IMG/VR virus record: IMGVR_UViG_2541047937_000003
Span: 1 to 33,630 of that record
Length of the DNA: 33,630 bases
Direction: 5' to 3' (one strand)
Source of the DNA: a virus
Lineage: Duplodnaviria; Heunggongvirae; Uroviricota; Caudoviricetes
The first letter of the stretch is position 1; the number at the start of each line of letters is the position of its first letter. Under the pieces are notes generated by a model that saw only the letters and a program-made list of their open reading frames with translations, searched no databases and was not told the DNA's origin. Shown here piece after piece: positions 7,634 to 23,906 of this stretch. Position numbers and translations under genes: made by a program.

Positions 7634-7894
7634 ATGCAATCACCATTACGAAATGTGCGTAAGGCGCATGGTTTCACTTTGCAGCATGTTGCTGCGGGTG
7701 TTCAAGTCAATCCAGCGACGTTGAGTCGTATTGAGAGGCTGGAGCAGATTCCATCTATCGAGCTTGCAGAACGTTTAGCCAATTTTTTTAAGGGTGAAGT
7801 CAGCGAAATGCAGATTCTTTATCCGGCACGTTTTCAATCTAGCCAAAACCAGAATGGGTTTAAACCACAGGAACAGGAGGTGAACCGTGGGTAA
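7634..7894 (+). CDS. Cro-like HTH regulator, 86 aa
   Basis: HTH segment FTLQHVAAGVQVNPATLSRIERLEQIPSIELAERLANFF; divergent from the cI-like gene. Confidence 0.7.
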   Translation: MQSPLRNVRKAHGFTLQHVAAGVQVNPATLSRIERLEQIPSIELAERLANFFKGEVSEMQILYPARFQSSQNQNGFKPQEQEVNRG

Positions 7895-8438
7895 GCATCA
7901 CTGGAAAGTAGAAAAACAGCCTGAGTGGTACGTGAAAGCTGTCAGAAAAACTATCGCAGCGTTGCCGGGGGGGTACGCTGAAGCTGCTGACTGGCTGGAT
8001 GTAACAGAGAACGCATTATTTAACCGCCTTCGTGCCGATGGCGATCAGATTTTCCCGCTGGGATGGGCAATGATTTTGCAACGTGCTGGTGGAACTCACT
8101 TCATTGCTGACGCTGTGGCGCAGTCTGCAAATGGCGTCTTTGTGTCTCTTCCTGATGTCGAGGATGTGGACAACGCCGATATCAACCAACGCCTGCTGGA
8201 GGTCATTGAACAGATCGGCAGTTATTCAAAACAGATTCGTTCAGCAATTGAAGACGGTGTAGTGGAACCGCATGAGAAGACAGCAATTAACGACGAGCTG
8301 TACCTCTCAATTTCGAAGCTGCAGGAGCATGCAGCACTGGTCTACAAAATTTTTTGCATTTCAGAAAGTAATGACGCCCGCGAGTGTGCAGCTCTGGGCG
8401 CCGTGGCGTGTCGTGACTGTGGAGAAACTAACGCATGA
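7887..8438 (+). CDS. hypothetical early-right protein, 183 aa (possibly CII-like or YdaT-like regulator)
   Basis: Start overlaps cro stop; C-terminal Cys cluster ([14 protein letters not shown]); family not recognised with confidence. Confidence 0.5.
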
Positions 8439-8793
8439 ACAGTTTAACAACACACTACCGTCGCTCGCAACTGATTGCGCTTCCTGTACCGGGTGGAAAA
8501 GCGAAGGTGGAGTATTGCTATGCAGTAAATGTACCAGGTGGCAGGGTAATTGTAACCCACAGCTTTGCAGAGTGGGCTGTGGGTGATTTTAACCGGCAAA
8601 AGGAGACAGTCCTTTGCGACAAGTTAACCGCTGGTTCAAAGATCACTACGGAGTACCCGTCAGAGTCATTCGTTGGGAGCCGGAAACACAACGGGTTATC
8701 TACCTCCGTGAAGGCTATGAGCATGAGTGCTTCAGCCCGCTCGAACAGTTTCGTCGTAAATTCAGGGAAATAGAGGTCGGTCATGAGCACTAA
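8435..8793 (+). pseudogene. hypothetical gene with apparent frame change: protein-like N-terminal part in one frame (8435..about 8610), protein-like C-terminal part in another (8614..8793)
   Basis: Track ORF 8435..8773 has a plausible first 59 aa then S/T-rich low-complexity tail; the other frame from TTG 8614 (AAGGAG-like RBS GGAGA at 8602..8606) gives [59 protein letters not shown] and ends overlapping the O-like start. Confidence 0.35.
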
Positions 8794-9724
8794 ATTAACC
8801 GGCTATGTATGGGATGGTTGCGCAGCGTCAGGCATGAAATTATCCAGCGTGGCAATTATGGCCCGCCTGGCTGATTTCAGTAATGACGAAGGTGTGTGCT
8901 GGCCATCAATTGAAACCATTGCCCGTCAGATTGGCGCGGGGATGAGTACCGTCAGGACGGCTATCGCACGGCTGGAAGCAGAAGGCTGGTTAACGCGTAA
9001 GGCGCGTCGCCAGGGTAACCGCAATGCGTCGAATGTTTATCAGCTTAACGTTGCGAAGCTTCAGGCAGCGGCATTTTCTCAACTGTCAGATTCTGACCCG
9101 TCAAAATCTGACGCATCAAAATCTGACCCGTCAAAATTTGATGCGTCGAAATCTGGCAAAAAAGCGGGTTTTCACCCGTCAGAATCTGGCGGGGATCCGT
9201 CAGTAAAATCAAAACATGATCCGTCAGATAAAAAACCTTCTCGTCCGGACGCTTCGCAACCGGACACGCAGACGGATGAACAGGATTTTTTAACTCGCCA
9301 TCCTGATGCGGTTGTATTCAGCCCTAAAAAGCGCCAGTGGGGAACGCAGGATGATTTGACCTGCGAACAGTGGCTCTGGAAAAAAATCATCGCCCTGTAC
9401 GAGCAAGCCGCCGAATGTGACGGCGAGGTGGTTCGTCCCAAAGAACCGAACTGGACAGCCTGGGCAAACGAAATTCGCCTAATGTGTGTGCAGGATGGTC
9501 GTACTCACAAACAAATCTGCGAGATGTACAGCCGCGTCAGCCGCGATCCGTTCTGGTGCCGTAACGTGCTCAGCCCGTCGAAGCTGCGGGAAAAATGGGA
9601 TGAGCTTTCCCTGCGCTTATCACCGTCCGTCAGCACGTACACCGAAAAACGCGAAGACCCGTACTTCAAATCCAGTTACGACAACGTGGACTACAGCCAG
9701 ATCCCGGCAGGATTCAGGGGGTGA
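8783..9724 (+). CDS. replication initiator, lambda O-like (N-terminal wHTH, iteron-encoded low-complexity linker), 313 aa
   Basis: N-terminal HTH (WPSIETIARQIGAGMSTVRTAIARLEAEGWL); central SDSDPSKSDASKSDPSKFDASKS repeats encoded by DNA iterons; position between cro region and rusA. Confidence 0.65.
   Translation: MSTKLTGYVWDGCAASGMKLSSVAIMARLADFSNDEGVCWPSIETIARQIGAGMSTVRTAIARLEAEGWLTRKARRQGNRNASNVYQLNVAKLQAAAFSQLSDSDPSKSDASKSDPSKFDASKSGKKAGFHPSESGGDPSVKSKHDPSDKKPSRPDASQPDTQTDEQDFLTRHPDAVVFSPKKRQWGTQDDLTCEQWLWKKIIALYEQAAECDGEVVRPKEPNWTAWANEIRLMCVQDGRTHKQICEMYSRVSRDPFWCRNVLSPSKLREKWDELSLRLSPSVSTYTEKREDPYFKSSYDNVDYSQIPAGFRG
9083..9236. repeat. iteron cluster (putative origin of replication) inside the O-like gene
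   Basis: At least four tandem 15-bp repeats CCGTCAAAATCTGAC / GCATCAAAATCTGAC / CCGTCAAAATTTGAT / GCGTCGAAATCTGGC, then an A-rich stretch and three more degenerate CCGTCAG copies. Confidence 0.65.
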
Positions 9725-9726
9725 TC

Positions 9727-10129
9727 ATGAGTCTTTTGAATGAAGTTCAGAAATTCATTGAAGCCCATCCGGGGTGTACTTCCGGAGACATTGCGGATGC
9801 TTTTGCAGGTTACTCACGGCAGCGCGTTCTGCAGTCAGCAAGCAAGTTACGTCAGAGTGGGCGTGTGGCTCACCGTTGTGAAGGAGATACACGCAGACAT
9901 TTCCCACGCCTGCCGTTCAGTGAATGCAGCGGTAGAGCATCTTCGTGCACTGGAGAAAAAAGGCGTCATCACGATAAAGCGTGGCGTGGCCCGGGGGATA
10001 ACGCTTCATACCGCGGTGAAGGACGACGACAGCGAGGCGGTCGGGATTATCCGCGCACTGCTTGCCGGTGAGGAAAACGCCAGGCTGCGTGCAGCCCACT
10101 GGTTACATGAGAGAGGCCTGAAAGTATGA
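9727..10129 (+). pseudogene. LexA-N-terminal-type winged-helix DNA-binding gene, reading frame interrupted (+1 shift or ~97-nt insert between 9817 and 9913)
   Basis: One frame gives MSLLNEVQKFIEAHPGCTSGDIADAFAGYS (LexA helix 1-2 pattern), another gives RSVNAAVEHLRALEKKGVITIKRGVARGITLH (LexA recognition helix and wing). They are contiguous in LexA but 97 nt apart and out of frame here. The two track ORFs 9721..10071 and 9740..10129 each have an Arg-rich or odd half. Confidence 0.4.
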
Positions 10130-10515
10130 AGCTGATCTTGCCTTTCCCGCCCAGCGTGAACACGTACTGGCGACACCCCAACAAAGGGGCGTTTGCTGGT
10201 AAGAGTCTGATAAGCGCGGCGGGGCGAAAATTCCAGAGCGCGGCGTGCGCAGCAATAGTTGAGCAGTTACGTCGTCTGCCGAAACCAACGTCGGCACCTG
10301 CTTCAGTGGAGATCGTGTTGTTTCCTCCGGATAACCGGATCCGCGATCTGGACAACTATAACAAGGCGCTGTTTGACGCCCTGACCCACGCGGGTGTGTG
10401 GGAAGACGACAGTCAGGTGAAAAGAATGCTGGTGGAGTGGGGACCGGTTATCCCGGAAGGGAAGGTCGAGATCACTATCAGTAAGTACGAGAAAACGGCG
10501 GGTGCAGCCGCCTGA
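10126..10515 (+). CDS. rusA: RusA-family Holliday junction resolvase, 129 aa
   Basis: LPFPPSVNTYWRH N-terminus and DLDNYNKALFDALTHAGVWEDD acidic catalytic region typical of RusA; nin-region position. Confidence 0.8.
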   Translation: MKLILPFPPSVNTYWRHPNKGAFAGKSLISAAGRKFQSAACAAIVEQLRRLPKPTSAPASVEIVLFPPDNRIRDLDNYNKALFDALTHAGVWEDDSQVKRMLVEWGPVIPEGKVEITISKYEKTAGAAA

Positions 10516-10534
10516 TCAAGAGGAGAAACGAAGT

Positions 10535-10795
10535 ATGAATAATCTGATGGTCATTGATGGTATTGAAGTTCGTCGTGATACTTATGGGCGTTACAGCCTG
10601 AACGATCTGCACAGGGCTGCCGGTTCTCTGGATAAGCATAAGCCTGCATTCTGGCTCCGCAATGAGCAAACTGAACGTTTAATAAGCGAGTTGCAGATTT
10701 GCAACTCGGTCAATATAGAGCCAGTTAACGTTATTCGTGGCGGAAATAACCAGGGGACGTATGTCTGCAAAGAACTGGTGTACCGTGGCATTTGA
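10535..10795 (+). CDS. KilA-N domain protein, 86 aa
   Basis: MNNLMVIDGIEVRRDTYGRYSLNDLHRAAGS...KPAFWLRNEQTERLISEL matches the KilA-N/Bro-N pattern; start set at ATG with AGGAGA RBS. Confidence 0.55.
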   Translation: MNNLMVIDGIEVRRDTYGRYSLNDLHRAAGSLDKHKPAFWLRNEQTERLISELQICNSVNIEPVNVIRGGNNQGTYVCKELVYRGI

Positions 10796-10884
10796 AGAGA
10801 AGTATGGTTCCCAGCTGGAGCTGATATTTCGTTTTATCGATCGTGCGCTGGCAATAGGCGTACTGGCGTAAGTGGAGAACGAGC

Positions 10885-11637
10885 ATGAACCTTGAAGCCT
10901 TACCGAAATATTACTCCCCGAAATCTCCAAAACTGAGCGATGACGCACCGGCGACAGGCTCTGGTGGTTTAACGATTACGGATGTGATGGCTGCGCAGGG
11001 GATGGTGCAGTCGAAAGCACCGCTTGGGTTTGCCTTATTCCTGGCAAAAGTTGGTGTTCAGGATCCTCAGTTTGCGATTGAAGGTCTGCTCAATTACGCG
11101 ATGGCACTGGATAACCCGACATTGAATAAATTGAGTGAAGAAACCCGGCTACAGATCATTCCTTACCTTGTGAATTTTGCCTTTGCTGATTATTCCAGGT
11201 CTGCGGCAAGTAAGGCTCGCTGTGAGCATTGTGCTGGTACTGGATTTCATAATGTATTGCGCGAAGTGGTGAAACACTCCAGAAGCGGGGAGTCTGTTAT
11301 CAAGGAAGAGTGGGTGAAGGAACTATGTCAGCATTGTCATGGTAAGGGAGAAGTCAGCACAGCGTGCAGAGGGTGTAAGGGTAAAGGTATTGTCCTGGAT
11401 GAAAAAAGAACCCGGCTTCATGGTACGCCTGTTTATAAGATTTGTGGGCGTTGCAATGGAAAACGGTTTAGTCGTTTACCAACCACACTGGCGCGGCATC
11501 ATGTCCAGAAACTGGTACCAGACCTGACGGATTATCAGTGGTACAAAGGATATGCAGATGTCATTGATAAACTGGTTACAAAGTGCTGGCAGGAGGAATC
11601 TTACGCTGAAGCACAATTGAGAAAGGTGACAAGATAA
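10885..11637 (+). CDS. putative late-gene regulator in the Q (antiterminator) position; protein with four CxxCxGxG Zn-finger repeats, 250 aa
   Basis: CEHCAGTG, CQHCHGKG, CRGCKGKG, CGRCNGKR repeats; last early-right gene before the late terminator and lysis cassette. Q assignment is positional. Confidence 0.4.
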   Translation: MNLEALPKYYSPKSPKLSDDAPATGSGGLTITDVMAAQGMVQSKAPLGFALFLAKVGVQDPQFAIEGLLNYAMALDNPTLNKLSEETRLQIIPYLVNFAFADYSRSAASKARCEHCAGTGFHNVLREVVKHSRSGESVIKEEWVKELCQHCHGKGEVSTACRGCKGKGIVLDEKRTRLHGTPVYKICGRCNGKRFSRLPTTLARHHVQKLVPDLTDYQWYKGYADVIDKLVTKCWQEESYAEAQLRKVTR

Positions 11638-11744
11638 GTGATCTTCGCCGAAAATGGTGACATCATGCTTGCAATTTTCAAAAAAACATGGATAAGATTT
11701 TCTCAACGATGGGCTTTATGTATCTGCTGTTGATAACCTTCAAG

Positions 11745-11770
11745 AACTCGCCATTGAGCGGGTTTTTTAT
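11745..11770 (+). terminator. candidate late-leader terminator (tR'-like) downstream of the Q-like gene
   Basis: CTCGC-cattga-GCGGG hairpin (one G-U pair) followed by TTTTTTATT; a TATAAT hexamer follows at 11805..11810. Confidence 0.3.
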
Positions 11771-11840
11771 TGTGTAAAAACAGAATGACGGTATTAATTA
11801 GTAATATAATTATTCGACCATACAACTAGGGGTCGAAAAA

Positions 11841-12626
11841 ATGTATGTTTTTGAGTTAATCAAGCCAGGCAGTAATCTTAAGTTTGAAAACAGAGAGTTA
11901 GAATGGACGTTTAATAACTTATTATCCCATTTAGAAACTGCATTTTATGATGCTAATGTAGCATTAAATTTATTCGAACAGGAAAGAACTAAGAATAACA
12001 GTAAATTCGATAATATTTCTCAGACATGGCAAGCTGATGTACAGAAACGACAAGCACTGGAAATGCTGGTTCGTAAAGAGTTTGGTTATCAACCTTATGA
12101 ATATTCAGAACAGGTTTTTTCAGAGGTCGAGCTACGTCTAAAAAGAGAAAAATGGAATAACGGTGAATATCCGTTGGCTCATCAACACAGATTGATCTTC
12201 TTACATGCAAAATCATTTCTCTACGCTTTGGATGCTATTGATAAATTTTTAAAGGTAATTTCAAAAGAAAATGGCGCGCCAGAGAACATTAAAAAATTGC
12301 ATGAACAGCTTTCTAAAGACTTTCCGAATTTAAGAAAGGTAAGGAATTCAGCTCAACACATGGAAGACAGAGTTCGTGGGCTTGGTGCAGAGAAAGAACC
12401 AAAGCCAATAAAACTCAAACCTGTAAATAATATTCATGTTGTTGCACCTCAGGGGGCATTGATGTTGAATAACTTATTCGGAACTAAATTTGGGTGCACT
12501 ATGGCTGATGGCTATTATGGTGAAGTAGATATTTCGACAGAGTCTTTGGCAAAGTTGCAAAATTTAATCCAAAAAGTTTTTAATTCCTTCAGTTGGGAAG
12601 GACCAAAGCAACACCTTCCCCGATAA
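11841..12626 (+). CDS. AT-rich moron protein, 261 aa, unknown function; contains an R-x4-H motif (RNSAQH, aa 168-173): candidate abortive-infection/defence protein
   Basis: Complete ORF with AGGGG RBS; markedly AT-rich with atypical codon usage; sits between the Q-like gene and the holin; followed by a perfect bidirectional terminator. Confidence 0.6.
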   Translation: MYVFELIKPGSNLKFENRELEWTFNNLLSHLETAFYDANVALNLFEQERTKNNSKFDNISQTWQADVQKRQALEMLVRKEFGYQPYEYSEQVFSEVELRLKREKWNNGEYPLAHQHRLIFLHAKSFLYALDAIDKFLKVISKENGAPENIKKLHEQLSKDFPNLRKVRNSAQHMEDRVRGLGAEKEPKPIKLKPVNNIHVVAPQGALMLNNLFGTKFGCTMADGYYGEVDISTESLAKLQNLIQKVFNSFSWEGPKQHLPR

Positions 12627-12630
12627 CATT

Positions 12631-12675
12631 TTCTTTTTTATTGAAAGCCGCCAAATAATTGGCGGCTTTTTTATT
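12631..12675. terminator. bidirectional rho-independent terminator
   Basis: Perfect 11-bp stem AAAGCCGCCAA / TTGGCGGCTTT (12644..12654, 12659..12669), 4-nt loop, T tracts on both sides. Confidence 0.8.
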
Positions 12676-12715
12676 TCACAGTACCCGCAAATATCGCGAG
12701 GTGAGAGATGACGAA

Positions 12716-13042
12716 ATGCCTCATAACCCAAATACCTGGCTGGACTTGGTCCAGAGCTGGTGGCGTGGAGACACACCGCTGGGCGCAGTGATTATGTCGA
12801 TTGTTATGGCTGGCTTGCGCATTGCATATTTTGGCGGTGGTGGGGGCTGGAAACGAAAAACACTCGAGATTTTGCTCTGTGGTGCTCTGACGCTGACTTT
12901 TGCATCCGCTCTTGAGTATGTCGGATGGCCTAAATCTCTTTCTGTTGCCATTGGTGGTGGCGTTGGGTTGATCGGTGTCGATGCTATTCGTGGGGCTGCA
13001 ATGAGTGTAATCGGTAATAAGTTTGGTGGCTCTAAGGAGTAA
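12716..13042 (+). CDS. holin, 108 aa, three predicted TM segments
   Basis: Hydrophobic segments LGAVIMSIVMAGLRIAYF, TLEILLCGALTLTFASAL, LSVAIGGGVGLIGVDAI; immediately upstream of the endolysin; start set at ATG with GAGGTGAGAG RBS (track ORF starts at a TTG inside the terminator). Confidence 0.7.
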   Translation: MPHNPNTWLDLVQSWWRGDTPLGAVIMSIVMAGLRIAYFGGGGGWKRKTLEILLCGALTLTFASALEYVGWPKSLSVAIGGGVGLIGVDAIRGAAMSVIGNKFGGSKE

Positions 13043-13045
13043 TTT

Positions 13046-13522
13046 ATGCAGGTACTAAATTCCCAGCGTAAAGCTTTCCTTGATATGGTGGCTTGGTCAG
13101 AAGGAACGGATAACGGACGACAACCGACACGTAACCACGGTTATGACGTTATTGTCGGTGGTGAACTCTTCACTGATTACTCCGATCACCCTCGCAAACT
13201 TGTCACGCTAAACCCGAAACTCAAGTCAACAGCCGCCGGACGTTACCAGCTTCTTTCACGCTGGTGGGATGCTTACCGTAAACAGCTTGGCCTGAAAGAT
13301 TTTTCTCCAGAAAGCCAGGACGCTGTAGCTCTGCAGCAGATTAAAGAGCGTGGCGCTTTACCGATGATTGACCGCGGCAATATTCGTCAGGCAATCGACC
13401 GTTGCAGCAATATCTGGGCGTCGTTACCAGGTGCAGGTTACGGTCAGTATGAACATAAAATCGGCGACCTGATTGCCCGATTTAAAGAGGCTGGTGGGGT
13501 AGTAAATGAAGCTGAGATATAA
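13046..13522 (+). CDS. endolysin, lambda R-type lytic transglycosylase, 158 aa
   Basis: NSQRKAFLDMVAWSEGTDNGRQPTRNHGYDVIVGGELFTDYSDHPRKLVTLNPKLKST... is near-identical to lambda R as I recall it; same length. Confidence 0.92.
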   Translation: MQVLNSQRKAFLDMVAWSEGTDNGRQPTRNHGYDVIVGGELFTDYSDHPRKLVTLNPKLKSTAAGRYQLLSRWWDAYRKQLGLKDFSPESQDAVALQQIKERGALPMIDRGNIRQAIDRCSNIWASLPGAGYGQYEHKIGDLIARFKEAGGVVNEAEI

Positions 13523-13898
13523 GCTGGTTATTGTTGCCTTCTTTGTTACCGTCATTGGTTCCTTCATCTGGTCTGTCGGGCATTACTACAGCAAATATCA
13601 GCACGAAAAGGAGCGTGCTGATGAGGCTGTACGAAATGCTGAATCGGCAACTGCCATTACCAATAACGTCCTGCAATCAATACAAATCGTAAATACAGCA
13701 CTGGAGGCTAGCCAGCATGCAAAACAACAAATCGCACTGGAGTCACAGAGAACCCAGGAAGATATCAAAGTGGCTGTTGCGAATGATGATTGCGCTTCAC
13801 GTCCTGTGCCTGCTGCCGCTACTGACCGGTTGCGGAAGTACGCGGACAGTTTACGTGAGCACCCCAGTAGCACCACTGTCAACCACCCTAACTTCTGA
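13506..13898 (+). CDS. Rz-like i-spanin, 130 aa
   Basis: N-terminal TM anchor (LVIVAFFVTVIGSFIWSV) then helical region; start overlaps the endolysin stop; contains an Rz1-like ORF in the +1 frame. Confidence 0.6.
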   Translation: MKLRYKLVIVAFFVTVIGSFIWSVGHYYSKYQHEKERADEAVRNAESATAITNNVLQSIQIVNTALEASQHAKQQIALESQRTQEDIKVAVANDDCASRPVPAAATDRLRKYADSLREHPSSTTVNHPNF

Positions 13899-14031
13899 AA
13901 CACCGATTCCAATTATACCTAGTCCACTGACATATGGTGCTAGCCTAGACCTGAATGCAAGTTTGTTATCTGCATTAGGGCAGTGCAATAGAGATAAAAA
14001 GGCTATCCGCAGTATAAACAATGCTAGATGA
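13783..14031 (+). CDS. Rz1-like o-spanin lipoprotein
   Basis: +1 frame relative to Rz; signal peptide with lipobox LLTGC (MMIALHVLCLLPLLTGCGS), Pro-rich mature part; extends 133 nt beyond Rz. Start uncertain (13717 or 13783). Confidence 0.5.
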   Translation: MMIALHVLCLLPLLTGCGSTRTVYVSTPVAPLSTTLTSETPIPIIPSPLTYGASLDLNASLLSALGQCNRDKKAIRSINNAR

Positions 14032-14109
14032 AGATTTTAATTTAAATTGAAGATGCCTATTACTAGACATCTTTATAATTTATGCTCAAACCAAAGTGGA
14101 TTTGTAATA

Positions 14110-14484
14110 TTAAAGACTATTTAGGAGACTCTGAATAATAGGCCATAAAGTTAATGTGTTTGCACCAGCTGAGTAAAATCGCTCCATCAGTTGTAGAGGT
14201 GTTGATGACTGATTAAACTTGATATCATTTAAAATGTCGTATATTTCTTGTAGCTTCTCTGCACCAAGTTTATCGTTAATTTCACTTAAGTTATTTTGTA
14301 TGGCGATTTCTGCTTCTTTTATAAGCCGAACTGTTTCTGCTGAGTAATGAATATTGTTGGAAAGAAAAGTATTAGCTGAATCAATAATTTCATAACCAAC
14401 ATCAGCACCAAATGATTTGTTTCCAATTATTTTGATGTTTTCGCATCCCTCAATGCGATAAGCAACGGTTTTCTTTTCACTCAT
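14110..14484 (-). CDS. AT-rich reverse-strand moron protein, 124 aa, unknown function
   Basis: Complete ORF on the strand opposite to the late genes, between Rz1 and HNH (the position lambda bor occupies); strongly AT-rich; no signal peptide or TM segment seen. Confidence 0.55.
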   Translation of the reverse strand: MSEKKTVAYRIEGCENIKIIGNKSFGADVGYEIIDSANTFLSNNIHYSAETVRLIKEAEIAIQNNLSEINDKLGAEKLQEIYDILNDIKFNQSSTPLQLMERFYSAGANTLTLWPIIQSLLNSL

Positions 14485-14611
14485 GTTATAACCTGTGTTT
14501 AGTTACTTTTATTAGAACCTTGTTATCAGATTTTTCTCATAAAGGAAAGAGTGAAAGAGAAAAATGAATCTCTTTTGTCAAATATGTCTATCAGATTAAA
14601 GAGAGTATTTT

Positions 14612-14962
14612 ATGCCAGCACTGATACCTAGAGCCTGCCGTGTTCGCGGCTGCCACCATACCACTACTGACCCGTCAGGCTATTGTGAAAGCCATAAAAG
14701 CGAAGGCTGGAAGCAATACAAGCCAGGCCAGTCCCGTCATCAGCGCGGCTACGGTTCGAAGTGGGACAGTATCCGCGCGCGCGTCCTGAAGCGTGACAAA
14801 GGTTTATGTCAGTTATGTCTGCGTGCCGGTGTGGTGCGTGAAGCTAAAACCGTTGACCACATCATCCCTAAAGCGCATGGCGGCACCGATGCAGACAGTA
14901 ATCTGCAGAGCCTGTGCTGGCCGTGCCATAAGACGAAGACGGCCCGTGAACGGCTAAAGTGA
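14612..14962 (+). CDS. HNH endonuclease (terminase-associated), 116 aa
   Basis: CRVRGCHHTT...CQLCLRAG...VDHIIPKAHGGTDADSNLQSLCWPCH: HNH core with two CxxC pairs; immediately upstream of terS. Confidence 0.85.
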   Translation: MPALIPRACRVRGCHHTTTDPSGYCESHKSEGWKQYKPGQSRHQRGYGSKWDSIRARVLKRDKGLCQLCLRAGVVREAKTVDHIIPKAHGGTDADSNLQSLCWPCHKTKTARERLK

Positions 14963-14988
14963 TAATAATTCTCAACTGCCTGAGGGGA

Positions 14989-15048
14989 GGGGCGGGTCAA
15001 ATCCCTGTGGCCTGACGTCTTCCGGACTGCCCGCCCCATCGTTTTTTT
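14989..15048 (+). other. GC-rich inverted repeat between HNH and terS: candidate cos/packaging site or long-loop terminator
   Basis: GGGGCGGG (14989..14996) pairs with CCCGCCCC (15030..15037) across 33 nt, followed by TTTTTTT (15042..15048); in HK97-like phages cos lies between HNH and terS. Confidence 0.35.
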
Positions 15049-15087
15049 ATACCCGCGAAAAATGAAATTTAACCAGGAGTGCCGCAT

Positions 15088-15759
15088 ATGGCTGGAACGG
15101 CGGGGCGTTCCGGGCGTCGCCCCAAGCCAACGGCGCGCAAGGCGCTGGCCGGAAACCCCGGCAAGCGAGCCCTGAATAAAGATGAACCTGTTTTTACGCC
15201 CATCAAAGGTGTTGAGCCACCGGAGTGGTTCGCTGAAGAAGATCTCCCTCTCGCTACGATCATGTGGCAACTGACAACTAAAGAACTCTGCGGTCAGGGC
15301 CTGCTGTGCGTGACTGACCTCGCGGTGCTTGAGCGGTGGTGCGTGGCCTACGAGTTCTGGCGACGTGCCGTGAAAAATATTGCCAGACAGGGCAACACCA
15401 TCACCGGTGCAATGGGCGGTATGGTCAAAAATCCGGAGCTGACCGCCAAAAAAGAACAGGAGTCCGAGATGAGCAGTACGGGGGCAATGCTCGGACTCGA
15501 CCCCAGCAGCCGCCAGCGTCTGATTGGCCTGGCGGGGCAGAAGAAAGCCACTAAACCGCGCAGAAGGATAAGTTCGGCGCGGGTAAGAACGGTTTTACCC
15601 GTGGTAACCCCCAGACTGGCACACCTGCCACCGATCTGGATGATGACTACTTTGATATGTTGCAGGAAGAACTCTGCAGCGTGGTGGAGGCATCCGGTGC
15701 CAGCCTGGAGAAGGGGCGAAACGACCAGTTGCTTACCGCGCTTCGTGCTCTGCTGTTAA
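15088..15759 (+). CDS. terminase small subunit, P27 family; 3' end abnormal (authentic sequence ends near codon 153, about 15546, then read-through)
   Basis: [37 protein letters not shown]-terminus; AGGAG RBS; after ...LIGLAGQKK the frame continues as Arg/Cys/Trp-rich sequence while a tail-fibre frame opens at 15555. Confidence 0.7.
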
Positions 15760-16277
15760 GCCGCAAGAATCCGTTTGGTGATATCAAATCGGATGGCACG
15801 GTGAAAACGGCTCTCGAAAACCTTGGTTTGGGAGAAGCGGCAAAACGGAATGTGGGCAACGGGGAAAACCAAATCCCTGATATGTCTTTCTGGACGGTTA
15901 CTGGTGGCAATGGAAATTTTGTGATTCGTCAACCTGACGGGCTAATCATCCAGATGGTTACTGTAAGTATAAGCGGCCCAGTGGCGATGAATGGAATGAC
16001 TGATAATGCTTATGCCATCACAGGTTCTAATAAGTCTTATATTGCCACAGCCACATTGCCCTTTGTATTTCCTAATAAGGTGCTGGGCGTTATCCCTCTG
16101 GTATCAACAACAACCTATGGTGGTGTATCCAGTAATATTACAGGTTCATACGCGACGGCGGTTTGTTCTTTTGCCGCTGTCCGGGGGAATAATACGATTG
16201 TATTCAAAGTCGACAAACCACTGAATGCAGCCTTTCCTTCAGATACCAGCGTCTCAGCGTTAATCATTGGACGGTAA
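15657..16277 (+). CDS. tail-fibre protein C-terminal fragment, variant 1 (Stf-like), 206 aa
   Basis: First 60 aa ([24 protein letters not shown]...ENLGLGE) identical to the opposite-strand ORF 17297..17974, then a unique region; frame is open upstream to 15555 with no start codon, so this is a 3' remnant of a longer fibre gene. Confidence 0.7.
15811..15836. promoter_or_regulatory. 26-bp crossover site for a Gin/Hin/Pin-family serine invertase (left copy)
   Basis: CTCTCGAAAACC-TT-GGTTTGGGAGAA resembles hix/gix sites (two 12-bp AAACC-containing half-sites around a 2-bp core); lies exactly at the constant/variable boundary. Confidence 0.65.
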
Positions 16278-16279
16278 TA

Positions 16280-16723
16280 ATGAACTCAGTATTCTTTTCA
16301 CCCGGAAGTAAAAGTTTTTATCTACAAGAATTGTTTCCAGAATATGAGGATGCGGGAACGCTTCCAGATGATGTTATTGAAATTACCCGAGAAACATATG
16401 AGCAATTTCTTGGGCTGCATCCAGAAGGGAAAGAAATTGGCGCTGACAGTTCAGGACGGCCAGTATGGATTAATTCCCCACCCCCTTCAAAAGAGGATGA
16501 GGTGTTGACGGCTGAAATGAAAAAAATATCTTTGGTTTCAGAAGTCAATACCTACATCAATACCCATCAGTGGCCTGGCAAAGCTGCTATTGGTCGTCTG
16601 AAAGGTGACGAGCTGGAACAATATAATTTATGGCTGGATTATCTGGACGCACTGGAACTGGTTGATACCTCCAGTGCTCCAGATATTGAATGGCCTACGC
16701 CTCCGGCAGTTCAGGCCAGATGA
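16280..16723 (+). CDS. tail-fibre assembly protein (Tfa), variant 1, 147 aa
   Basis: Immediately downstream of Stf variant 1; C-terminal ...SAPDIEWPTPPAVQAR shares the SAPD-x-WP motif with the opposite-strand Tfa. Confidence 0.7.
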   Translation: MNSVFFSPGSKSFYLQELFPEYEDAGTLPDDVIEITRETYEQFLGLHPEGKEIGADSSGRPVWINSPPPSKEDEVLTAEMKKISLVSEVNTYINTHQWPGKAAIGRLKGDELEQYNLWLDYLDALELVDTSSAPDIEWPTPPAVQAR

Positions 16724-17297
16724 CATCCGGCGCGGTGCTGGTATCTGTTGCCGTCACCGTGTCAATGTAATCCAGCACAGCGTTAAGGCGGGTGATTTCT
16801 GCCTGCGTCAGCTTCCGCCCGGCCTGCAATTTCAGCTGAATCAGACTGATGGAAGCCATAGCAGCATCAATCAGCGACTGGCGCTGTGTTTCTGCCACGT
16901 CTACTGCGGCGCTATGCTGTGCCTCAGTATCGGTCACCCATTTCTCACCATCCCATTTATCGAATGGCGTTAACGGGGCGATAGTAGTTGTATTTTCAGG
17001 GTAATCACCCGGAGCTGTGATTTCTTTTGATTCTCCTGTTTCAGTGCTATATACCGTTTCACCGCGATGATCTGGCACATATTCCCATGAGTTAAAATCT
17101 GCAGAACGGCAAATTGCATAACCAGCTTTATATGAGCCAGGAGCATCTAAACAGGAACATGCCGGAATACCGACGCCAACCGCAAGATATTCAGTTGATG
17201 TGGAAATATATTCCCGCGTTTCACCATCATAATTATAAATGGTAATGTCTCCCGCTTTTATGGCAATGAGTTCGTTATTTAATACGGCTTTATTCAT
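16695..17297 (-). CDS. tail-fibre assembly protein (Tfa), variant 2, 200 aa
   Basis: C-terminal ...STAPDVIWPELPEA; 3' end overlaps the other tfa by 29 nt; start overlaps the stop of Stf variant 2. Resembles e14 TfaE from memory. Confidence 0.7.
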   Translation of the reverse strand: MNKAVLNNELIAIKAGDITIYNYDGETREYISTSTEYLAVGVGIPACSCLDAPGSYKAGYAICRSADFNSWEYVPDHRGETVYSTETGESKEITAPGDYPENTTTIAPLTPFDKWDGEKWVTDTEAQHSAAVDVAETQRQSLIDAAMASISLIQLKLQAGRKLTQAEITRLNAVLDYIDTVTATDTSTAPDVIWPELPEA

Positions 17298-17974
17298 CAG
17301 GCAGCCCTCACGATATAATTAAAGGCAATGTTACGAGGACGGTTTTCGTTTGCAGTTGGAACAATTCTTGAAGCATCAAGGCCAATCACTTTTGGGTAAA
17401 CACCGCCCTCGGACCTTTCTGTCACCATACTTCTGACTAAGGAGAAATAACTATTGTTCGTTGAGGGGTTCAAAGGCACTACTGCCCCCTTAAACGAGCC
17501 TACTGATTCCCATATTGAATAATTTTCGGTGTTTACAGTCTTGAACTCACCATAGATATTACGTATGGCATCGCCCTGAGCTGATAATATTGCCCTCCCC
17601 GTATCCATACCACGTCCGTCATCCCAGCCACGAATAAACTCACCACGTAAATCAGGCAATTTATTTGTCGGGTAAGCCTTTGCCAGTTCCGGGTATTCTT
17701 CAACAGAAAAAGCTGCTCCGTTGCATTTCAGCCAGCCTGTTGGCGGAGTGGCTGAGGGCCACGGAACAGGTACGCCAACAGGCAATGCTGAGCCTTCTCC
17801 TAAACCAAGGTTTTCGAGAGCCGTTTTCACCGTGCCATCCGATTTGATATCACCAAACGGATTCTTGCGGCTTAACAGCAGAGCACGAAGCGCGGTAAGC
17901 AACTGGTCGTTTCGCCCCTTCTCCAGGCTGGCACCGGATGCCTCCACCACGCTGCAGAGTTCTTCCTGCAACAT
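17297..17974 (-). CDS. tail-fibre protein C-terminal fragment, variant 2 (Stf-like), 225 aa
   Basis: Shares the first 60 aa with variant 1, then a different region ([29 protein letters not shown]...). Confidence 0.7.
17795..17820. promoter_or_regulatory. 26-bp invertase crossover site (right copy, inverted orientation)
   Basis: TTCTCCTAAACC-AA-GGTTTTCGAGAG is the reverse complement of the left site with one substitution (17801 T versus the complement of G 15830). Confidence 0.65.
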
Positions 17975-18543
17975 ATCAAAGTAGTCATCATCCAGATCGG
18001 TGGCAGGTGTGCCAGTCTGGGGGTTACCACGGGTAAAACCGTTCTTACCCGCGCCGAACTTATCCTTCTGCGCGGTTTAGTGGCTTTCTTCTGCCCCGCC
18101 AGGCCAATCAGACGCTGGCGGCTGCTGGGGTCGAGTCCGAGCATTGCCCCCGTACTGCTCATCTCGGACTCCTGTTCTTTTTTGGCGGTCAGCTCCGGAT
18201 TTTTGACCATACCGCCCATTGCACCGGTGATGGTGTTGCCCTGTCTGGCAATATTTTTCACGGCACGTCGCCAGAACTCGTAGGCCACGCACCACCGCTC
18301 AAGCACCGCGAGGTCAGTCACGCACAGCAGGCCCTGACCGCAGAGTTCTTTAGTTGTCAGTTGCCACATGATCGTAGCGAGAGGGAGATCTTCTTCAGCG
18401 AACCACTCCGGTGGCTCAACACCTTTGATGGGCGTAAAAACAGGTTCATCTTTATTCAGGGCTCGCTTGCCGGGGTTTCCGGCCAGCGCCTTGCGCGCCG
18501 TTGGCTTGGGGCGACGCCCGGAACGCCCCGCCGTTCCAGCCAT
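17872..18543 (-). CDS. terminase small subunit, P27 family (mirror copy of 15088..15759)
   Basis: Identical translation on opposite strand. Confidence 0.65.
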
Positions 18544-18582
18544 ATGCGGCACTCCTGGTTAAATTTCATTTTTCGCGGGTAT

Positions 18583-18642
18583 AAAAAAACGATGGGGCGG
18601 GCAGTCCGGAAGACGTCAGGCCACAGGGATTTGACCCGCCCC
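18583..18642 (-). other. GC-rich inverted repeat, candidate cos site or terminator (mirror copy of 14989..15048)
   Basis: Mirror copy. Confidence 0.3.
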
Positions 18643-18668
18643 TCCCCTCAGGCAGTTGAGAATTATTA

Positions 18669-19019
18669 TCACTTTAGCCGTTCACGGGCCGTCTTCGTCT
18701 TATGGCACGGCCAGCACAGGCTCTGCAGATTACTGTCTGCATCGGTGCCGCCATGCGCTTTAGGGATGATGTGGTCAACGGTTTTAGCTTCACGCACCAC
18801 ACCGGCACGCAGACATAACTGACATAAACCTTTGTCACGCTTCAGGACGCGCGCGCGGATACTGTCCCACTTCGAACCGTAGCCGCGCTGATGACGGGAC
18901 TGGCCTGGCTTGTATTGCTTCCAGCCTTCGCTTTTATGGCTTTCACAATAGCCTGACGGGTCAGTAGTGGTATGGTGGCAGCCGCGAACACGGCAGGCTC
19001 TAGGTATCAGTGCTGGCAT
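18669..19019 (-). CDS. HNH endonuclease (mirror copy of 14612..14962)
   Basis: Identical translation on opposite strand. Confidence 0.8.
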   Translation of the reverse strand: MPALIPRACRVRGCHHTTTDPSGYCESHKSEGWKQYKPGQSRHQRGYGSKWDSIRARVLKRDKGLCQLCLRAGVVREAKTVDHIIPKAHGGTDADSNLQSLCWPCHKTKTARERLK

Positions 19020-19146
19020 AAAATACTCTCTTTAATCTGATAGACATATTTGACAAAAGAGATTCATTTTTCTCTTTCACTCTTTCCTTTATGAGAAAAA
19101 TCTGATAACAAGGTTCTAATAAAAGTAACTAAACACAGGTTATAAC

Positions 19147-19521
19147 ATGAGTGAAAAGAAAACCGTTGCTTATCGCATTGAGGGATGCGAAAACATCAAA
19201 ATAATTGGAAACAAATCATTTGGTGCTGATGTTGGTTATGAAATTATTGATTCAGCTAATACTTTTCTTTCCAACAATATTCATTACTCAGCAGAAACAG
19301 TTCGGCTTATAAAAGAAGCAGAAATCGCCATACAAAATAACTTAAGTGAAATTAACGATAAACTTGGTGCAGAGAAGCTACAAGAAATATACGACATTTT
19401 AAATGATATCAAGTTTAATCAGTCATCAACACCTCTACAACTGATGGAGCGATTTTACTCAGCTGGTGCAAACACATTAACTTTATGGCCTATTATTCAG
19501 AGTCTCCTAAATAGTCTTTAA
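19147..19521 (+). CDS. AT-rich moron protein, 124 aa (mirror copy of 14110..14484)
   Basis: Identical translation on opposite strand. Confidence 0.5.
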   Translation: MSEKKTVAYRIEGCENIKIIGNKSFGADVGYEIIDSANTFLSNNIHYSAETVRLIKEAEIAIQNNLSEINDKLGAEKLQEIYDILNDIKFNQSSTPLQLMERFYSAGANTLTLWPIIQSLLNSL

Positions 19522-19599
19522 TATTACAAATCCACTTTGGTTTGAGCATAAATTATAAAGATGTCTAGTAATAGGCATCTTCAATTTAAATTAAAATCT

Positions 19600-19848
19600 T
19601 CATCTAGCATTGTTTATACTGCGGATAGCCTTTTTATCTCTATTGCACTGCCCTAATGCAGATAACAAACTTGCATTCAGGTCTAGGCTAGCACCATATG
19701 TCAGTGGACTAGGTATAATTGGAATCGGTGTTTCAGAAGTTAGGGTGGTTGACAGTGGTGCTACTGGGGTGCTCACGTAAACTGTCCGCGTACTTCCGCA
19801 ACCGGTCAGTAGCGGCAGCAGGCACAGGACGTGAAGCGCAATCATCAT
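19600..19848 (-). CDS. Rz1-like o-spanin (mirror copy of 13783..14031)
   Basis: Mirror copy. Confidence 0.45.
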   Translation of the reverse strand: MMIALHVLCLLPLLTGCGSTRTVYVSTPVAPLSTTLTSETPIPIIPSPLTYGASLDLNASLLSALGQCNRDKKAIRSINNAR

Positions 19849-20125
19849 TCGCAACAGCCACTTTGATATCTTCCTGGGTTCTCTGTGACTCCAGTGCGAT
19901 TTGTTGTTTTGCATGCTGGCTAGCCTCCAGTGCTGTATTTACGATTTGTATTGATTGCAGGACGTTATTGGTAATGGCAGTTGCCGATTCAGCATTTCGT
20001 ACAGCCTCATCAGCACGCTCCTTTTCGTGCTGATATTTGCTGTAGTAATGCCCGACAGACCAGATGAAGGAACCAATGACGGTAACAAAGAAGGCAACAA
20101 TAACCAGCTTATATCTCAGCTTCAT
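19733..20125 (-). CDS. Rz-like i-spanin (mirror copy of 13506..13898)
   Basis: Identical translation on opposite strand. Confidence 0.55.
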   Translation of the reverse strand: MKLRYKLVIVAFFVTVIGSFIWSVGHYYSKYQHEKERADEAVRNAESATAITNNVLQSIQIVNTALEASQHAKQQIALESQRTQEDIKVAVANDDCASRPVPAAATDRLRKYADSLREHPSSTTVNHPNF

Positions 20126-20585
20126 TTACTACCCCACCAGCCTCTTTAAATCGGGCAATCAGGTCGCCGATTTTATGTTCATACTGACCGTAACCTGCAC
20201 CTGGTAACGACGCCCAGATATTGCTGCAACGGTCGATTGCCTGACGAATATTGCCGCGGTCAATCATCGGTAAAGCGCCACGCTCTTTAATCTGCTGCAG
20301 AGCTACAGCGTCCTGGCTTTCTGGAGAAAAATCTTTCAGGCCAAGCTGTTTACGGTAAGCATCCCACCAGCGTGAAAGAAGCTGGTAACGTCCGGCGGCT
20401 GTTGACTTGAGTTTCGGGTTTAGCGTGACAAGTTTGCGAGGGTGATCGGAGTAATCAGTGAAGAGTTCACCACCGACAATAACGTCATAACCGTGGTTAC
20501 GTGTCGGTTGTCGTCCGTTATCCGTTCCTTCTGACCAAGCCACCATATCAAGGAAAGCTTTACGCTGGGAATTTAGTACCTGCAT
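20109..20585 (-). CDS. endolysin, lambda R-type (mirror copy of 13046..13522)
   Basis: Identical translation on opposite strand. Confidence 0.9.
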   Translation of the reverse strand: MQVLNSQRKAFLDMVAWSEGTDNGRQPTRNHGYDVIVGGELFTDYSDHPRKLVTLNPKLKSTAAGRYQLLSRWWDAYRKQLGLKDFSPESQDAVALQQIKERGALPMIDRGNIRQAIDRCSNIWASLPGAGYGQYEHKIGDLIARFKEAGGVVNEAEI

Positions 20586-20588
20586 AAA

Positions 20589-20915
20589 TTACTCCTTAGA
20601 GCCACCAAACTTATTACCGATTACACTCATTGCAGCCCCACGAATAGCATCGACACCGATCAACCCAACGCCACCACCAATGGCAACAGAAAGAGATTTA
20701 GGCCATCCGACATACTCAAGAGCGGATGCAAAAGTCAGCGTCAGAGCACCACAGAGCAAAATCTCGAGTGTTTTTCGTTTCCAGCCCCCACCACCGCCAA
20801 AATATGCAATGCGCAAGCCAGCCATAACAATCGACATAATCACTGCGCCCAGCGGTGTGTCTCCACGCCACCAGCTCTGGACCAAGTCCAGCCAGGTATT
20901 TGGGTTATGAGGCAT
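20589..20915 (-). CDS. holin (mirror copy of 12716..13042)
   Basis: Mirror copy. Confidence 0.65.
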   Translation of the reverse strand: MPHNPNTWLDLVQSWWRGDTPLGAVIMSIVMAGLRIAYFGGGGGWKRKTLEILLCGALTLTFASALEYVGWPKSLSVAIGGGVGLIGVDAIRGAAMSVIGNKFGGSKE

Positions 20916-20955
20916 TTCGTCATCTCTCACCTCGCGATATTTGCGGGTACTGTGA

Positions 20956-21000
20956 AATAAAAAAGCCGCCAATTATTTGGCGGCTTTCAATAAAAAAGAA
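20956..21000. terminator. bidirectional terminator (mirror copy of 12631..12675)
   Basis: Mirror copy. Confidence 0.75.
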
Positions 21001-21004
21001 AATG

Positions 21005-21790
21005 TTATCGGGGAAGGTGTTGCTTTGGTCCTTCCCAACTGAAGGAATTAAAAACTTTTTGGATTAAATTTTGCAACTTTGCCAAAGACTCTGTCGAAAT
21101 ATCTACTTCACCATAATAGCCATCAGCCATAGTGCACCCAAATTTAGTTCCGAATAAGTTATTCAACATCAATGCCCCCTGAGGTGCAACAACATGAATA
21201 TTATTTACAGGTTTGAGTTTTATTGGCTTTGGTTCTTTCTCTGCACCAAGCCCACGAACTCTGTCTTCCATGTGTTGAGCTGAATTCCTTACCTTTCTTA
21301 AATTCGGAAAGTCTTTAGAAAGCTGTTCATGCAATTTTTTAATGTTCTCTGGCGCGCCATTTTCTTTTGAAATTACCTTTAAAAATTTATCAATAGCATC
21401 CAAAGCGTAGAGAAATGATTTTGCATGTAAGAAGATCAATCTGTGTTGATGAGCCAACGGATATTCACCGTTATTCCATTTTTCTCTTTTTAGACGTAGC
21501 TCGACCTCTGAAAAAACCTGTTCTGAATATTCATAAGGTTGATAACCAAACTCTTTACGAACCAGCATTTCCAGTGCTTGTCGTTTCTGTACATCAGCTT
21601 GCCATGTCTGAGAAATATTATCGAATTTACTGTTATTCTTAGTTCTTTCCTGTTCGAATAAATTTAATGCTACATTAGCATCATAAAATGCAGTTTCTAA
21701 ATGGGATAATAAGTTATTAAACGTCCATTCTAACTCTCTGTTTTCAAACTTAAGATTACTGCCTGGCTTGATTAACTCAAAAACATACAT
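21005..21790 (-). CDS. AT-rich moron protein, 261 aa, R-x4-H motif (mirror copy of 11841..12626)
   Basis: Identical translation on opposite strand. Confidence 0.55.
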   Translation of the reverse strand: MYVFELIKPGSNLKFENRELEWTFNNLLSHLETAFYDANVALNLFEQERTKNNSKFDNISQTWQADVQKRQALEMLVRKEFGYQPYEYSEQVFSEVELRLKREKWNNGEYPLAHQHRLIFLHAKSFLYALDAIDKFLKVISKENGAPENIKKLHEQLSKDFPNLRKVRNSAQHMEDRVRGLGAEKEPKPIKLKPVNNIHVVAPQGALMLNNLFGTKFGCTMADGYYGEVDISTESLAKLQNLIQKVFNSFSWEGPKQHLPR

Positions 21791-21993
21791 TTTTTCGACC
21801 CCTAGTTGTATGGTCGAATAATTATATTACTAATTAATACCGTCATTCTGTTTTTACACAATAAAAAACCCGCTCAATGGCGAGTTCTTGAAGGTTATCA
21901 ACAGCAGATACATAAAGCCCATCGTTGAGAAAATCTTATCCATGTTTTTTTGAAAATTGCAAGCATGATGTCACCATTTTCGGCGAAGATCAC

Positions 21994-22746
21994 TTATCTT
22001 GTCACCTTTCTCAATTGTGCTTCAGCGTAAGATTCCTCCTGCCAGCACTTTGTAACCAGTTTATCAATGACATCTGCATATCCTTTGTACCACTGATAAT
22101 CCGTCAGGTCTGGTACCAGTTTCTGGACATGATGCCGCGCCAGTGTGGTTGGTAAACGACTAAACCGTTTTCCATTGCAACGCCCACAAATCTTATAAAC
22201 AGGCGTACCATGAAGCCGGGTTCTTTTTTCATCCAGGACAATACCTTTACCCTTACACCCTCTGCACGCTGTGCTGACTTCTCCCTTACCATGACAATGC
22301 TGACATAGTTCCTTCACCCACTCTTCCTTGATAACAGACTCCCCGCTTCTGGAGTGTTTCACCACTTCGCGCAATACATTATGAAATCCAGTACCAGCAC
22401 AATGCTCACAGCGAGCCTTACTTGCCGCAGACCTGGAATAATCAGCAAAGGCAAAATTCACAAGGTAAGGAATGATCTGTAGCCGGGTTTCTTCACTCAA
22501 TTTATTCAATGTCGGGTTATCCAGTGCCATCGCGTAATTGAGCAGACCTTCAATCGCAAACTGAGGATCCTGAACACCAACTTTTGCCAGGAATAAGGCA
22601 AACCCAAGCGGTGCTTTCGACTGCACCATCCCCTGCGCAGCCATCACATCCGTAATCGTTAAACCACCAGAGCCTGTCGCCGGTGCGTCATCGCTCAGTT
22701 TTGGAGATTTCGGGGAGTAATATTTCGGTAAGGCTTCAAGGTTCAT
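21994..22746 (-). CDS. Q-position Zn-finger protein (mirror copy of 10885..11637)
   Basis: Identical translation on opposite strand. Confidence 0.4.
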   Translation of the reverse strand: MNLEALPKYYSPKSPKLSDDAPATGSGGLTITDVMAAQGMVQSKAPLGFALFLAKVGVQDPQFAIEGLLNYAMALDNPTLNKLSEETRLQIIPYLVNFAFADYSRSAASKARCEHCAGTGFHNVLREVVKHSRSGESVIKEEWVKELCQHCHGKGEVSTACRGCKGKGIVLDEKRTRLHGTPVYKICGRCNGKRFSRLPTTLARHHVQKLVPDLTDYQWYKGYADVIDKLVTKCWQEESYAEAQLRKVTR

Positions 22747-22835
22747 GCTCGTTCTCCACTTACGCCAGTACGCCTATTGCCAGCGCACGATCGATAAAAC
22801 GAAATATCAGCTCCAGCTGGGAACCATACTTCTCT

Positions 22836-23096
22836 TCAAATGCCACGGTACACCAGTTCTTTGCAGACATACGTCCCCTGGTTATTTCCGCCACGAATAA
22901 CGTTAACTGGCTCTATATTGACCGAGTTGCAAATCTGCAACTCGCTTATTAAACGTTCAGTTTGCTCATTGCGGAGCCAGAATGCAGGCTTATGCTTATC
23001 CAGAGAACCGGCAGCCCTGTGCAGATCGTTCAGGCTGTAACGCCCATAAGTATCACGACGAACTTCAATACCATCAATGACCATCAGATTATTCAT
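22836..23096 (-). CDS. KilA-N domain protein (mirror copy of 10535..10795)
   Basis: Mirror copy. Confidence 0.5.
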   Translation of the reverse strand: MNNLMVIDGIEVRRDTYGRYSLNDLHRAAGSLDKHKPAFWLRNEQTERLISELQICNSVNIEPVNVIRGGNNQGTYVCKELVYRGI

Positions 23097-23115
23097 ACTT
23101 CGTTTCTCCTCTTGA

Positions 23116-23505
23116 TCAGGCGGCTGCACCCGCCGTTTTCTCGTACTTACTGATAGTGATCTCGACCTTCCCTTCCGGGATAACCGGTCCCCACTCCACC
23201 AGCATTCTTTTCACCTGACTGTCGTCTTCCCACACACCCGCGTGGGTCAGGGCGTCAAACAGCGCCTTGTTATAGTTGTCCAGATCGCGGATCCGGTTAT
23301 CCGGAGGAAACAACACGATCTCCACTGAAGCAGGTGCCGACGTTGGTTTCGGCAGACGACGTAACTGCTCAACTATTGCTGCGCACGCCGCGCTCTGGAA
23401 TTTTCGCCCCGCCGCGCTTATCAGACTCTTACCAGCAAACGCCCCTTTGTTGGGGTGTCGCCAGTACGTGTTCACGCTGGGCGGGAAAGGCAAGATCAGC
23501 TTCAT
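23116..23505 (-). CDS. rusA: RusA-family resolvase (mirror copy of 10126..10515)
   Basis: Identical translation on opposite strand. Confidence 0.75.
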   Translation of the reverse strand: MKLILPFPPSVNTYWRHPNKGAFAGKSLISAAGRKFQSAACAAIVEQLRRLPKPTSAPASVEIVLFPPDNRIRDLDNYNKALFDALTHAGVWEDDSQVKRMLVEWGPVIPEGKVEITISKYEKTAGAAA

Positions 23506-23904: not shown

Positions 23905-23906
23905 GA

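Follow-up and report, generated by a model that had tools for sequence, protein, structure and literature searches.

The window, by which we mean the whole stretch of 33,630 nucleotides analysed here, corresponds to positions 47456-81085 of the 128,540-bp scaffold KE702347.1 and carries an E. coli prophage together with a piece of the neighbouring host chromosome (Table 1). Besides proA, thrW and the integrase gene, its left arm holds early and regulatory genes, an antiterminator gene, lysis genes, an HNH endonuclease gene, a truncated gene for the small terminase subunit (terS) and the constant part (Sc) of a side tail-fibre gene (stf). An invertible fibre cassette occupies the centre. The two arms are exact reverse complements of each other, with no mismatch over 15,829 bp; the axis lies at 16815/16816, the unique centre (15830..17801) comprises 1,972 bp, the table of open reading frames is mirror-symmetric, and every gene of the arm, the host genes proA and thrW included, is present twice. 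There are no Ns in the window. The initial annotation described a single terS-stf junction and did not report the inverted repeat; the junction in fact occurs twice.

Table 1. Features of the window, with positions counted from its first letter.
Feature	Position	Strand	Evidence
Left arm of inverted repeat	1..15829	+	identical to reverse complement of 17802..33630
proA (host), left arm	1..1254		
tRNA-Thr thrW, left arm	1369..1444		tRNA prediction
Integrase gene	1459..2622	-	
Second deletion scar, 412 bp missing	9912..9913 (mirror 23718/23719)	+	comparison with sister prophage
Third deletion scar, 1,456 bp missing	10781..10782 (mirror 22849/22850)	+	comparison with sister prophage
HNH endonuclease gene, upstream partner of P27/HK97-type terminase	14612..14962	+	Pfam HNH/HNH_5; RefSeq annotation of identical sister gene
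Authentic P27-family terS, codons 1-155 and first two bases of codon 156	15088..15554	+	identity to sister TerS; Pfam Terminase_4
Deletion breakpoint, 2-nt microhomology AA inside ACTAA	15553..15555	+	three-way alignment; BLAST coordinates against sister
Sequence across terS-stf join	...GCCACTAAACCGCGCAG...	+	window
Out-of-frame terS read-through over stf; stop 15757..15759	15555..15759	+	translation, codon arithmetic
StfP-type side tail-fibre gene, codon 8 to end (SvB form)	15555..16277	+, -1 frame relative to terS	Stf alignments (L003/L004)
stf constant part Sc	15555..15822		Stf alignment
Sc-proximal 26-bp Pin/Din-type crossover site CTCTCGAAAACC-TT-GGTTTGGGAGAA, core TT 15823-15824	15811..15836	+	
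Invertible cassette, core to core	15823..17808		99.9% identical to sister cassette, flipped
tfa	16280..16723	+	Pfam Caudo_TAP/Collar cited for cassette
tfa' (200 aa)	16695..17297	-	
SvA/collar end	17297..	-	
Second crossover site CTCTCGAAAACC-TT-GGTTTAGGAGAA, Sc-type outer half	17796..17821	-	
Right arm, exact mirror copy, situated where relatives carry pinE	17802..33630	-	arm comparison
Mirror copy of terS-stf junction	18076..18078	-	inverted-repeat comparison

E. coli PRO_A-1443-6M-A_ESBL (NZ_CM136167.1) carries an intact sister of this prophage beside proA/thrW, with which the left arm agrees to 99.9% up to 15558 (99.8-100% over the compared parts). Nucleotide identity of the window to this sister and to fS25a amounts to 99.8-100% across arm, cassette and constant part of stf, and the integration site is the same. 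After terS the sister continues with terL, portal, HK97-type protease, major capsid, connector protein, sheath, tube, tape measure and Mu-like baseplate genes up to ymfQ, which is followed by stf (266 aa), tfaE, a second tfa, an alternative fibre end, pinE and a KAP NTPase gene. In its intact form the prophage of the window combines a head module of the HK97 type with a contractile, Mu-like tail module and is integrated at thrW beside proA. Positions 15553-15837 of the window match the stf of the sister, and 15818-18078 match its stf and cassette in reverse with 99.9% identity. The block missing between terS and stf measures 16,235 bp (positions 390-16624 of the sister locus L023) and holds about 21 morphogenesis genes, terL through ymfQ. 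Unlike the window, the sister possesses this block, a 412-bp and a 1,456-bp segment, and pinE with the KAP NTPase gene after the cassette. The earlier statement that TerL, portal, protease, capsid and tail genes are absent is borne out, since none of them is found among the open reading frames or called products of the window. Because the virion genes are deleted, the TerS tail is meaningless and Stf is without a start of its own, the element, as judged from its gene content, cannot package DNA or build virions. Identity to the sister is unevenly distributed, with 19 mismatches in 1..9912 as against 1 mismatch and 1 gap in 9913..15558, which suggests a recombination boundary or separate histories of the two parts.

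A base-level three-way alignment of the window with an intact terS locus (L001) and with intact stfP-type genes (L003, L004) placed the switch from terS to stf at 15553-15555. The terS parent agrees with the window through 15554 and the stf parent from 15553 onwards (terS ACTAACCCG, stf ACTAAAACCG, window ACTAAACCG), so that the bases common to both parents in strict register are AA (15553-15554), and a one-base slip in the A run extends them to ACTAA. In sister coordinates the join is L023 389/16625, where AA is shared and ACTAA nearly shared. A megablast search with 14600-16300 against 5,426 complete E. coli genomes gave HNH-terS homology in more than 2,000 genomes, every one stopping at 15558, while homology to the fibre gene begins at about 15546 with a 181-nt junction probe and at 15553 by base-level comparison. 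The flanks are collinear with the intact relative, the DNA between them is absent and the few shared bases stand only once at the join, which together make this an illegitimate deletion scar. The deletion used either the 2-nt microhomology AA, or ACTAA with subsequent loss of one A. The A run at 15553..15555 has three As in the window and four in intact stf; with four, TerS(1-155) would join Stf(7-end) in frame.

The initial annotation had attributed the deletion to another repeat, GCAGAAG, on both sides of the junction. Its two copies had been placed at 15532..15538 and 15559..15565; they lie at 15537..15543 and 15560..15566. The pair is at chance level, since the window contains 8 copies of the motif versus 4.9 expected (8 being reached in 10 of 100 shuffles) and since in 27% of the 123-nt segments of the arm some direct repeat of 7 nt or more recurs within 40 nt. 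Moreover, both copies are still present, unlike what a microhomology-mediated deletion leaves behind. GCAGAAG was therefore rejected as the microhomology, the true one being AA within ACTAA.

The terS reading frame, which starts with the ATG at 15088, is identical to the 164-aa TerS of the sister (WP_000929175.1, named 'phage terminase small subunit P27 family' in RefSeq) through T155 (ACT, 15550-15552). Its description as an authentic gene that continues as read-through to 15759 thus holds, with the limit moved from about codon 153 to codon 155. The chimeric product of 223 aa matches Pfam Terminase_4 (PF05119), and the last nine TerS residues (NPFLKIIES) are exchanged for 68 out-of-frame residues rich in Arg, Cys and Trp, reaching from K156, whose codon (15553-15555) straddles the breakpoint, to C223. 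The terminase module is incomplete: the C-terminus of TerS is replaced, and terL is absent from the window.

Translation confirmed the TAA at 15552..15554 and the open frame behind it, which includes DDDYFDM and leads without a start codon of its own into the fibre gene with the ATG at 15657. What had been called a tail-fibre 3' fragment is, however, a nearly full-length gene. Intact stf genes encode 247 or 266 aa (266 aa in the sister), and the window retains codon 8 to the end, 99.6% identical to the stf of the sister. The intact StfP-type N-terminus reads MHRIDTK-TAQKDKF..., and the frame in the window is homologous from after MHRIDTK, so that the loss is limited to the first seven codons, including the start codon, and to the GGAG Shine-Dalgarno site. 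The first in-frame ATG, at 15657, corresponds to Met42; in a Shine-Dalgarno comparison no such site was found before it. Alignment to intact relatives, which had been suggested as a check on the junction, was carried out: TerS lacks nine residues at its C-terminus, and what precedes the ATG at 15657 as an open frame is genuine Stf sequence. With 16,235 bp absent relative to the aligned sister, this is a deletion junction and not an ordinary intergenic region. The deletion took the last nine terS codons, the roughly 21 genes from terL to ymfQ and the first seven stf codons with the ribosome-binding site; the join through AA only put stf into the -1 frame, giving TerS a meaningless tail of 68 residues and leaving Stf without its own start. 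A programmed -1 frameshift from terS into stf was considered and rejected, as ACT-AAA-CCG is no canonical slippery heptamer, and the arrangement is regarded as a by-product of the deletion.

Two further scars are present in each arm. The 412-bp loss takes the 3' end of a yfdN/PerC-family gene together with the 5' end of a LexA-family gene, and the 1,456-bp loss joins a KilA-N gene, thereby truncated, to the final ~36 codons of a DUF968 gene with a microhomology of 2 nt, the range over these two scars being 0-2 nt. Regulation and replication functions, which had been described as intact, are thus truncated at the yfdN/LexA-family and KilA-N/DUF968 genes, whereas the lysis, HNH and antiterminator genes agree with the sister. 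Three deletion scars set against an otherwise 99.8-100% conserved prophage indicate, as far as comparison with the sister can tell, recent stepwise decay.

In the fibre locus a constant 5' part is combined with two alternative 3' parts, which are oppositely oriented and have a tfa gene each. The locus is bounded by two inverted 26-bp crossover sites with a 2-bp core (TT/AA) that agree with the e14 repeat and with the published consensus table (PMC4134206). The inner half-site matches the repeat of the e14 P segment, TTGGTTTGGGAGAAGG (quoted in PMC12529663), over the first 15 of 16 bases. The far site of the sister reads TTTTCATAAACG-TT-GGTTTGGGAGAA, with pinE ~50 bp beyond it; the outer half TTTTCATAAACG is absent from the window, where both outer halves are of the Sc type and no open reading frame of the Resolvase family was found. 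Most other examined assemblies with the same cassette carry a Resolvase/HTH_7 invertase gene on the far side, and a few are without it or retain a fragment only (e.g. L008, L016, S3). The fibre-switch module can therefore not be called intact, as had been proposed: the window is without an invertase gene and has a mirror copy of the left arm in the place where most relatives examined have pinE. The arm boundary falls 5 bp past the core of the crossover site. One side of the cassette has the join Sc-SvB and the opposite side Sc-SvA, so that the two inversion isomers of a normal locus are combined in one molecule.

This arrangement bears directly on the question whether the palindrome exists in the cell. 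The two copies of the fusion gene lie at 62543-63214 and 65327-65998 of KE702347.1, and their coordinates sum to 128,541, the scaffold length plus one, so that the symmetry axis is the exact midpoint of the scaffold; beyond the window, palindromy of KE702347.1 is to be expected from this axis position. Perfectly identical arms around an axis at the scaffold midpoint are what a fold-back misassembly produces, and we consider it very likely that the mirror-image window and the 128.5-kb scaffold are such an artefact. The source culture would hold both orientations of the Pin-invertible cassette and would thus yield reads of the Sc-SvA and of the Sc-SvB junction, and the assembler would walk from the arm through the cassette into the reverse-complemented arm and not into the pinE flank. 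In e14 both isomers have indeed been found side by side in clonal cultures (PMC4272514), PinE, PinQ and PinR are all able to invert the segment in trans (PMC12529663), and the EC958 genome paper reported that contigs of alternative isomers can produce artefactual duplications in phage regions (PMC4134206). The scaffold contains the Sc-SvA as well as the Sc-SvB junction, and at 15829 the Logan graph has a branch; both orientations may occur in the population. From these observations we infer an assembler error, a pinE-type flank in the strain and active inversion there, in cis or in trans.

It is very improbable that the palindrome is real, that is, that a Pin-family invertase joined the Sc-proximal and pin-proximal sites of sister chromosomes, or that a template switch occurred during replication. 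Intermolecular recombination at the inverted sites does predict the order arm-cassette-arm' with junctions at the crossover cores, as is observed, the perfect identity of the arms would fit a recent event, and no N gap is present. Such a molecule would, however, have to be a true inverted duplication spanning at least 126 kb, with the cassette at its centre and without the pinE flank; an inverted dimer or duplication of the proA side of the chromosome is expected to be unstable or lethal, pinE lies on the far side in most related loci examined, and the axis at the scaffold midpoint fits one arm used twice.

Independent read-based assemblies help to distinguish the two readings. Unitigs of a k=31 de Bruijn graph were simulated under two models, a genome with the palindrome alone and a normal locus that occurs as two isomers. 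The palindrome-only genome gave a centre unitig of 15800..17831 (2,032 bp), and the two-isomer locus with a different far flank gave one of 15823..17808 (1,986 bp). The Logan contig L006 ends exactly at 15829, where a branch is expected both with a true palindrome and with a culture of mixed orientation; it is at the cassette that the models differ. There the Logan contig L021 is 100% identical to the window and covers exactly 15823..17808, equal to the unitig simulated for the normal locus and therefore in agreement with that model, and these boundaries require a second, non-Sc flank in the reads, which speaks against a real palindrome. In the normal-locus model the pinE-type flank beside the cassette would read TTTTCATAAACGTTGGTTT[G/A]GGAGAAG, and TTTTCATAAACGTTGGTTTGGGAGAAG and TTTTCATAAACGTTGGTTTAGGAGAAG are the sequences expected in reads for arm, cassette and the pinE flank of the sister. 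L021 is labelled with run SRR786316 and the junction contig with SRR958741, and we infer that both stem from the same strain. The exact 200-aa Tfa' occurs in two Logan contigs only in the whole collection, the second of which has 11 mismatches to the window, and L021 very probably includes reads of the source strain. A real palindrome accompanied by a second, identical cassette elsewhere would yield the same unitig boundaries. A 128.5-kb palindrome made by a Pin-family serine invertase between sister chromosomes, with loss of the pinE flank, is very improbable, and would, if true, be a natural example of large-scale genome rearrangement driven by an invertase. As a faithful map of the prophage, which the initial annotation took it to be, the window fails most likely through fold-back assembly, to judge from the arms, the crossover sites, the scaffold midpoint and the Logan unitigs.

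Given that the surrounding scaffold is very likely mis-built, any join in it merits caution, and the terS-stf junction might itself be an assembly or library chimera from a strain with an intact prophage. This is extremely improbable. The junction is not a product of the assembler, because its microhomology of 2-5 nt is far below any assembler k-mer and because the independently assembled read-based contig L006, listed for four samples, is 100% identical across it. The exact junction was found in none of the 5,426 complete E. coli genomes with the junction probe, and the exact 44-nt junction had no match in the collections genome_contigs and viral_contigs, in which the source strain is not represented; a search of the phage collection with junction and cassette returned cassette or tfa matches only, at 85-95% identity, and none over the junction. 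Analogous events are common, as independent deletions of ~16 kb were found in four complete E. coli genomes, namely S3 (L002), GF31 (L004), LH10-b-1 (L034) and MEI7BO1-21 (L035). There terS or the 5' end of terL is joined to the 3' end of ymfQ or the 5' end of stf, virion genes being lost, with breakpoints that differ in every case (BLAST mapping of two of the cases gave 4863->20918 and 5198->21155 in sister coordinates). The deletion at the terS-stf junction is real, and it is ordinary prophage decay. Taken jointly, a genuine loss of 16 kb by illegitimate recombination within a mirror architecture that is probably a fold-back misassembly is the likely reading of the locus.

All four of these genomes keep stf and at least one tfa, and a pin-family recombinase gene follows the cassette in three of them, the copy in GF31 being a frameshifted partial pseudogene. 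Such recurrence may hint at retention of the fibre-switch module, in a sample biased by ascertainment: the query joined only pieces within about 1.35 kb, which inflates both the recurrence and the clustering of breakpoints. A deletion hotspot or selection was for that reason rejected as unproven.

It is highly doubtful that the remnant is functional, either through an stf-tfa product, started at Met42 or by frameshifting from terS, that would block adsorption in the manner of e14 StfE2/StfP2, or through mobilisation by a helper phage. Stf chimeras arising from P-segment inversion in e14 do block adsorption of T2 (PMC12529663), stf and a tfa gene, at the least, have survived each of five independent deletions in this prophage family, the pin-family gene is kept in three of the four complete-genome cases, and one more A at 15553-15555 would put TerS-Stf in frame. 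Against this stand the loss of the native start and Shine-Dalgarno site of stf and the lack of such a site before the ATG at 15657, the non-canonical ACT-AAA-CCG, the inflated recurrence of the deletions and the 99.8-100% identity to an intact phage, which points to a recent accident and not to an evolved satellite. Nor does the element resemble a PICI-like satellite, as it is a near-identical deletion derivative and no satellite-specific genes were found among its called products.

Among known systems, the defective prophage e14 of E. coli K-12 and its Pin-invertible P segment (stfP-tfaP / tfaE-stfE, pinE) come nearest to the locus. Like the prophage of the window, e14 is decayed, has lost most morphogenesis genes and has kept an StfP-type fibre gene with a constant N-terminal part; in either case the fibre has two alternative C-terminal parts that are accompanied by a tfa each, and crossover sites of 26 bp are present. 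The inner half-site of the window (TTGGTTTGGGAGAAG) agrees with the published e14 repeat. The RefSeq names of homologues of the window genes are stfP, tfaE, ymfQ, ymfL and pinE. The two differ in that the prophage of the window is integrated at thrW/proA and not at icd, has other, strain-specific breakpoints, has lost the start of stf and is without an invertase gene within the window. Serine-invertase crossover sites with a 2-bp core and alternative fibre C-termini are likewise shared with Mu (G/gin), P1 (C/cin) and the EC958 prophages, whose segment isomers coexist in one culture and disturb genome assembly (PMC4134206). In all of these the far flank is the invertase gene, whereas in the window it is a mirror copy of the near flank. 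We know of no described natural system with a far flank of the latter kind.

In biological terms, the locus is a further instance of the stepwise decay known from e14-type prophages and is mainly of descriptive value. For users of public data, the window and the scaffold KE702347.1 should be flagged as most likely a fold-back chimera of two inversion isomers, owing to which every feature appears in two copies and the prophage is without its true right end (pinE, cargo genes, attR); inferences drawn from mirror symmetry or from genes 'missing' in the window need this caveat. More generally, unitig boundaries in independent read-based assemblies can separate a real palindrome from a misassembly induced by inversion.

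Some observations concern the wider prophage family. The start of the Logan contig L006, at 11358, falls within the antiterminator gene (10885..11637) and implies that the graph branches there, and a paralogous prophage with common sequence to the left of 11358 probably exists in the source strain. The exact 387-aa integrase is listed in 28,578 blocks of a public assembly index, so that the thrW/proA prophage family must be extremely widespread in E. coli, and the early regions of this family are highly mosaic (L024-L033).
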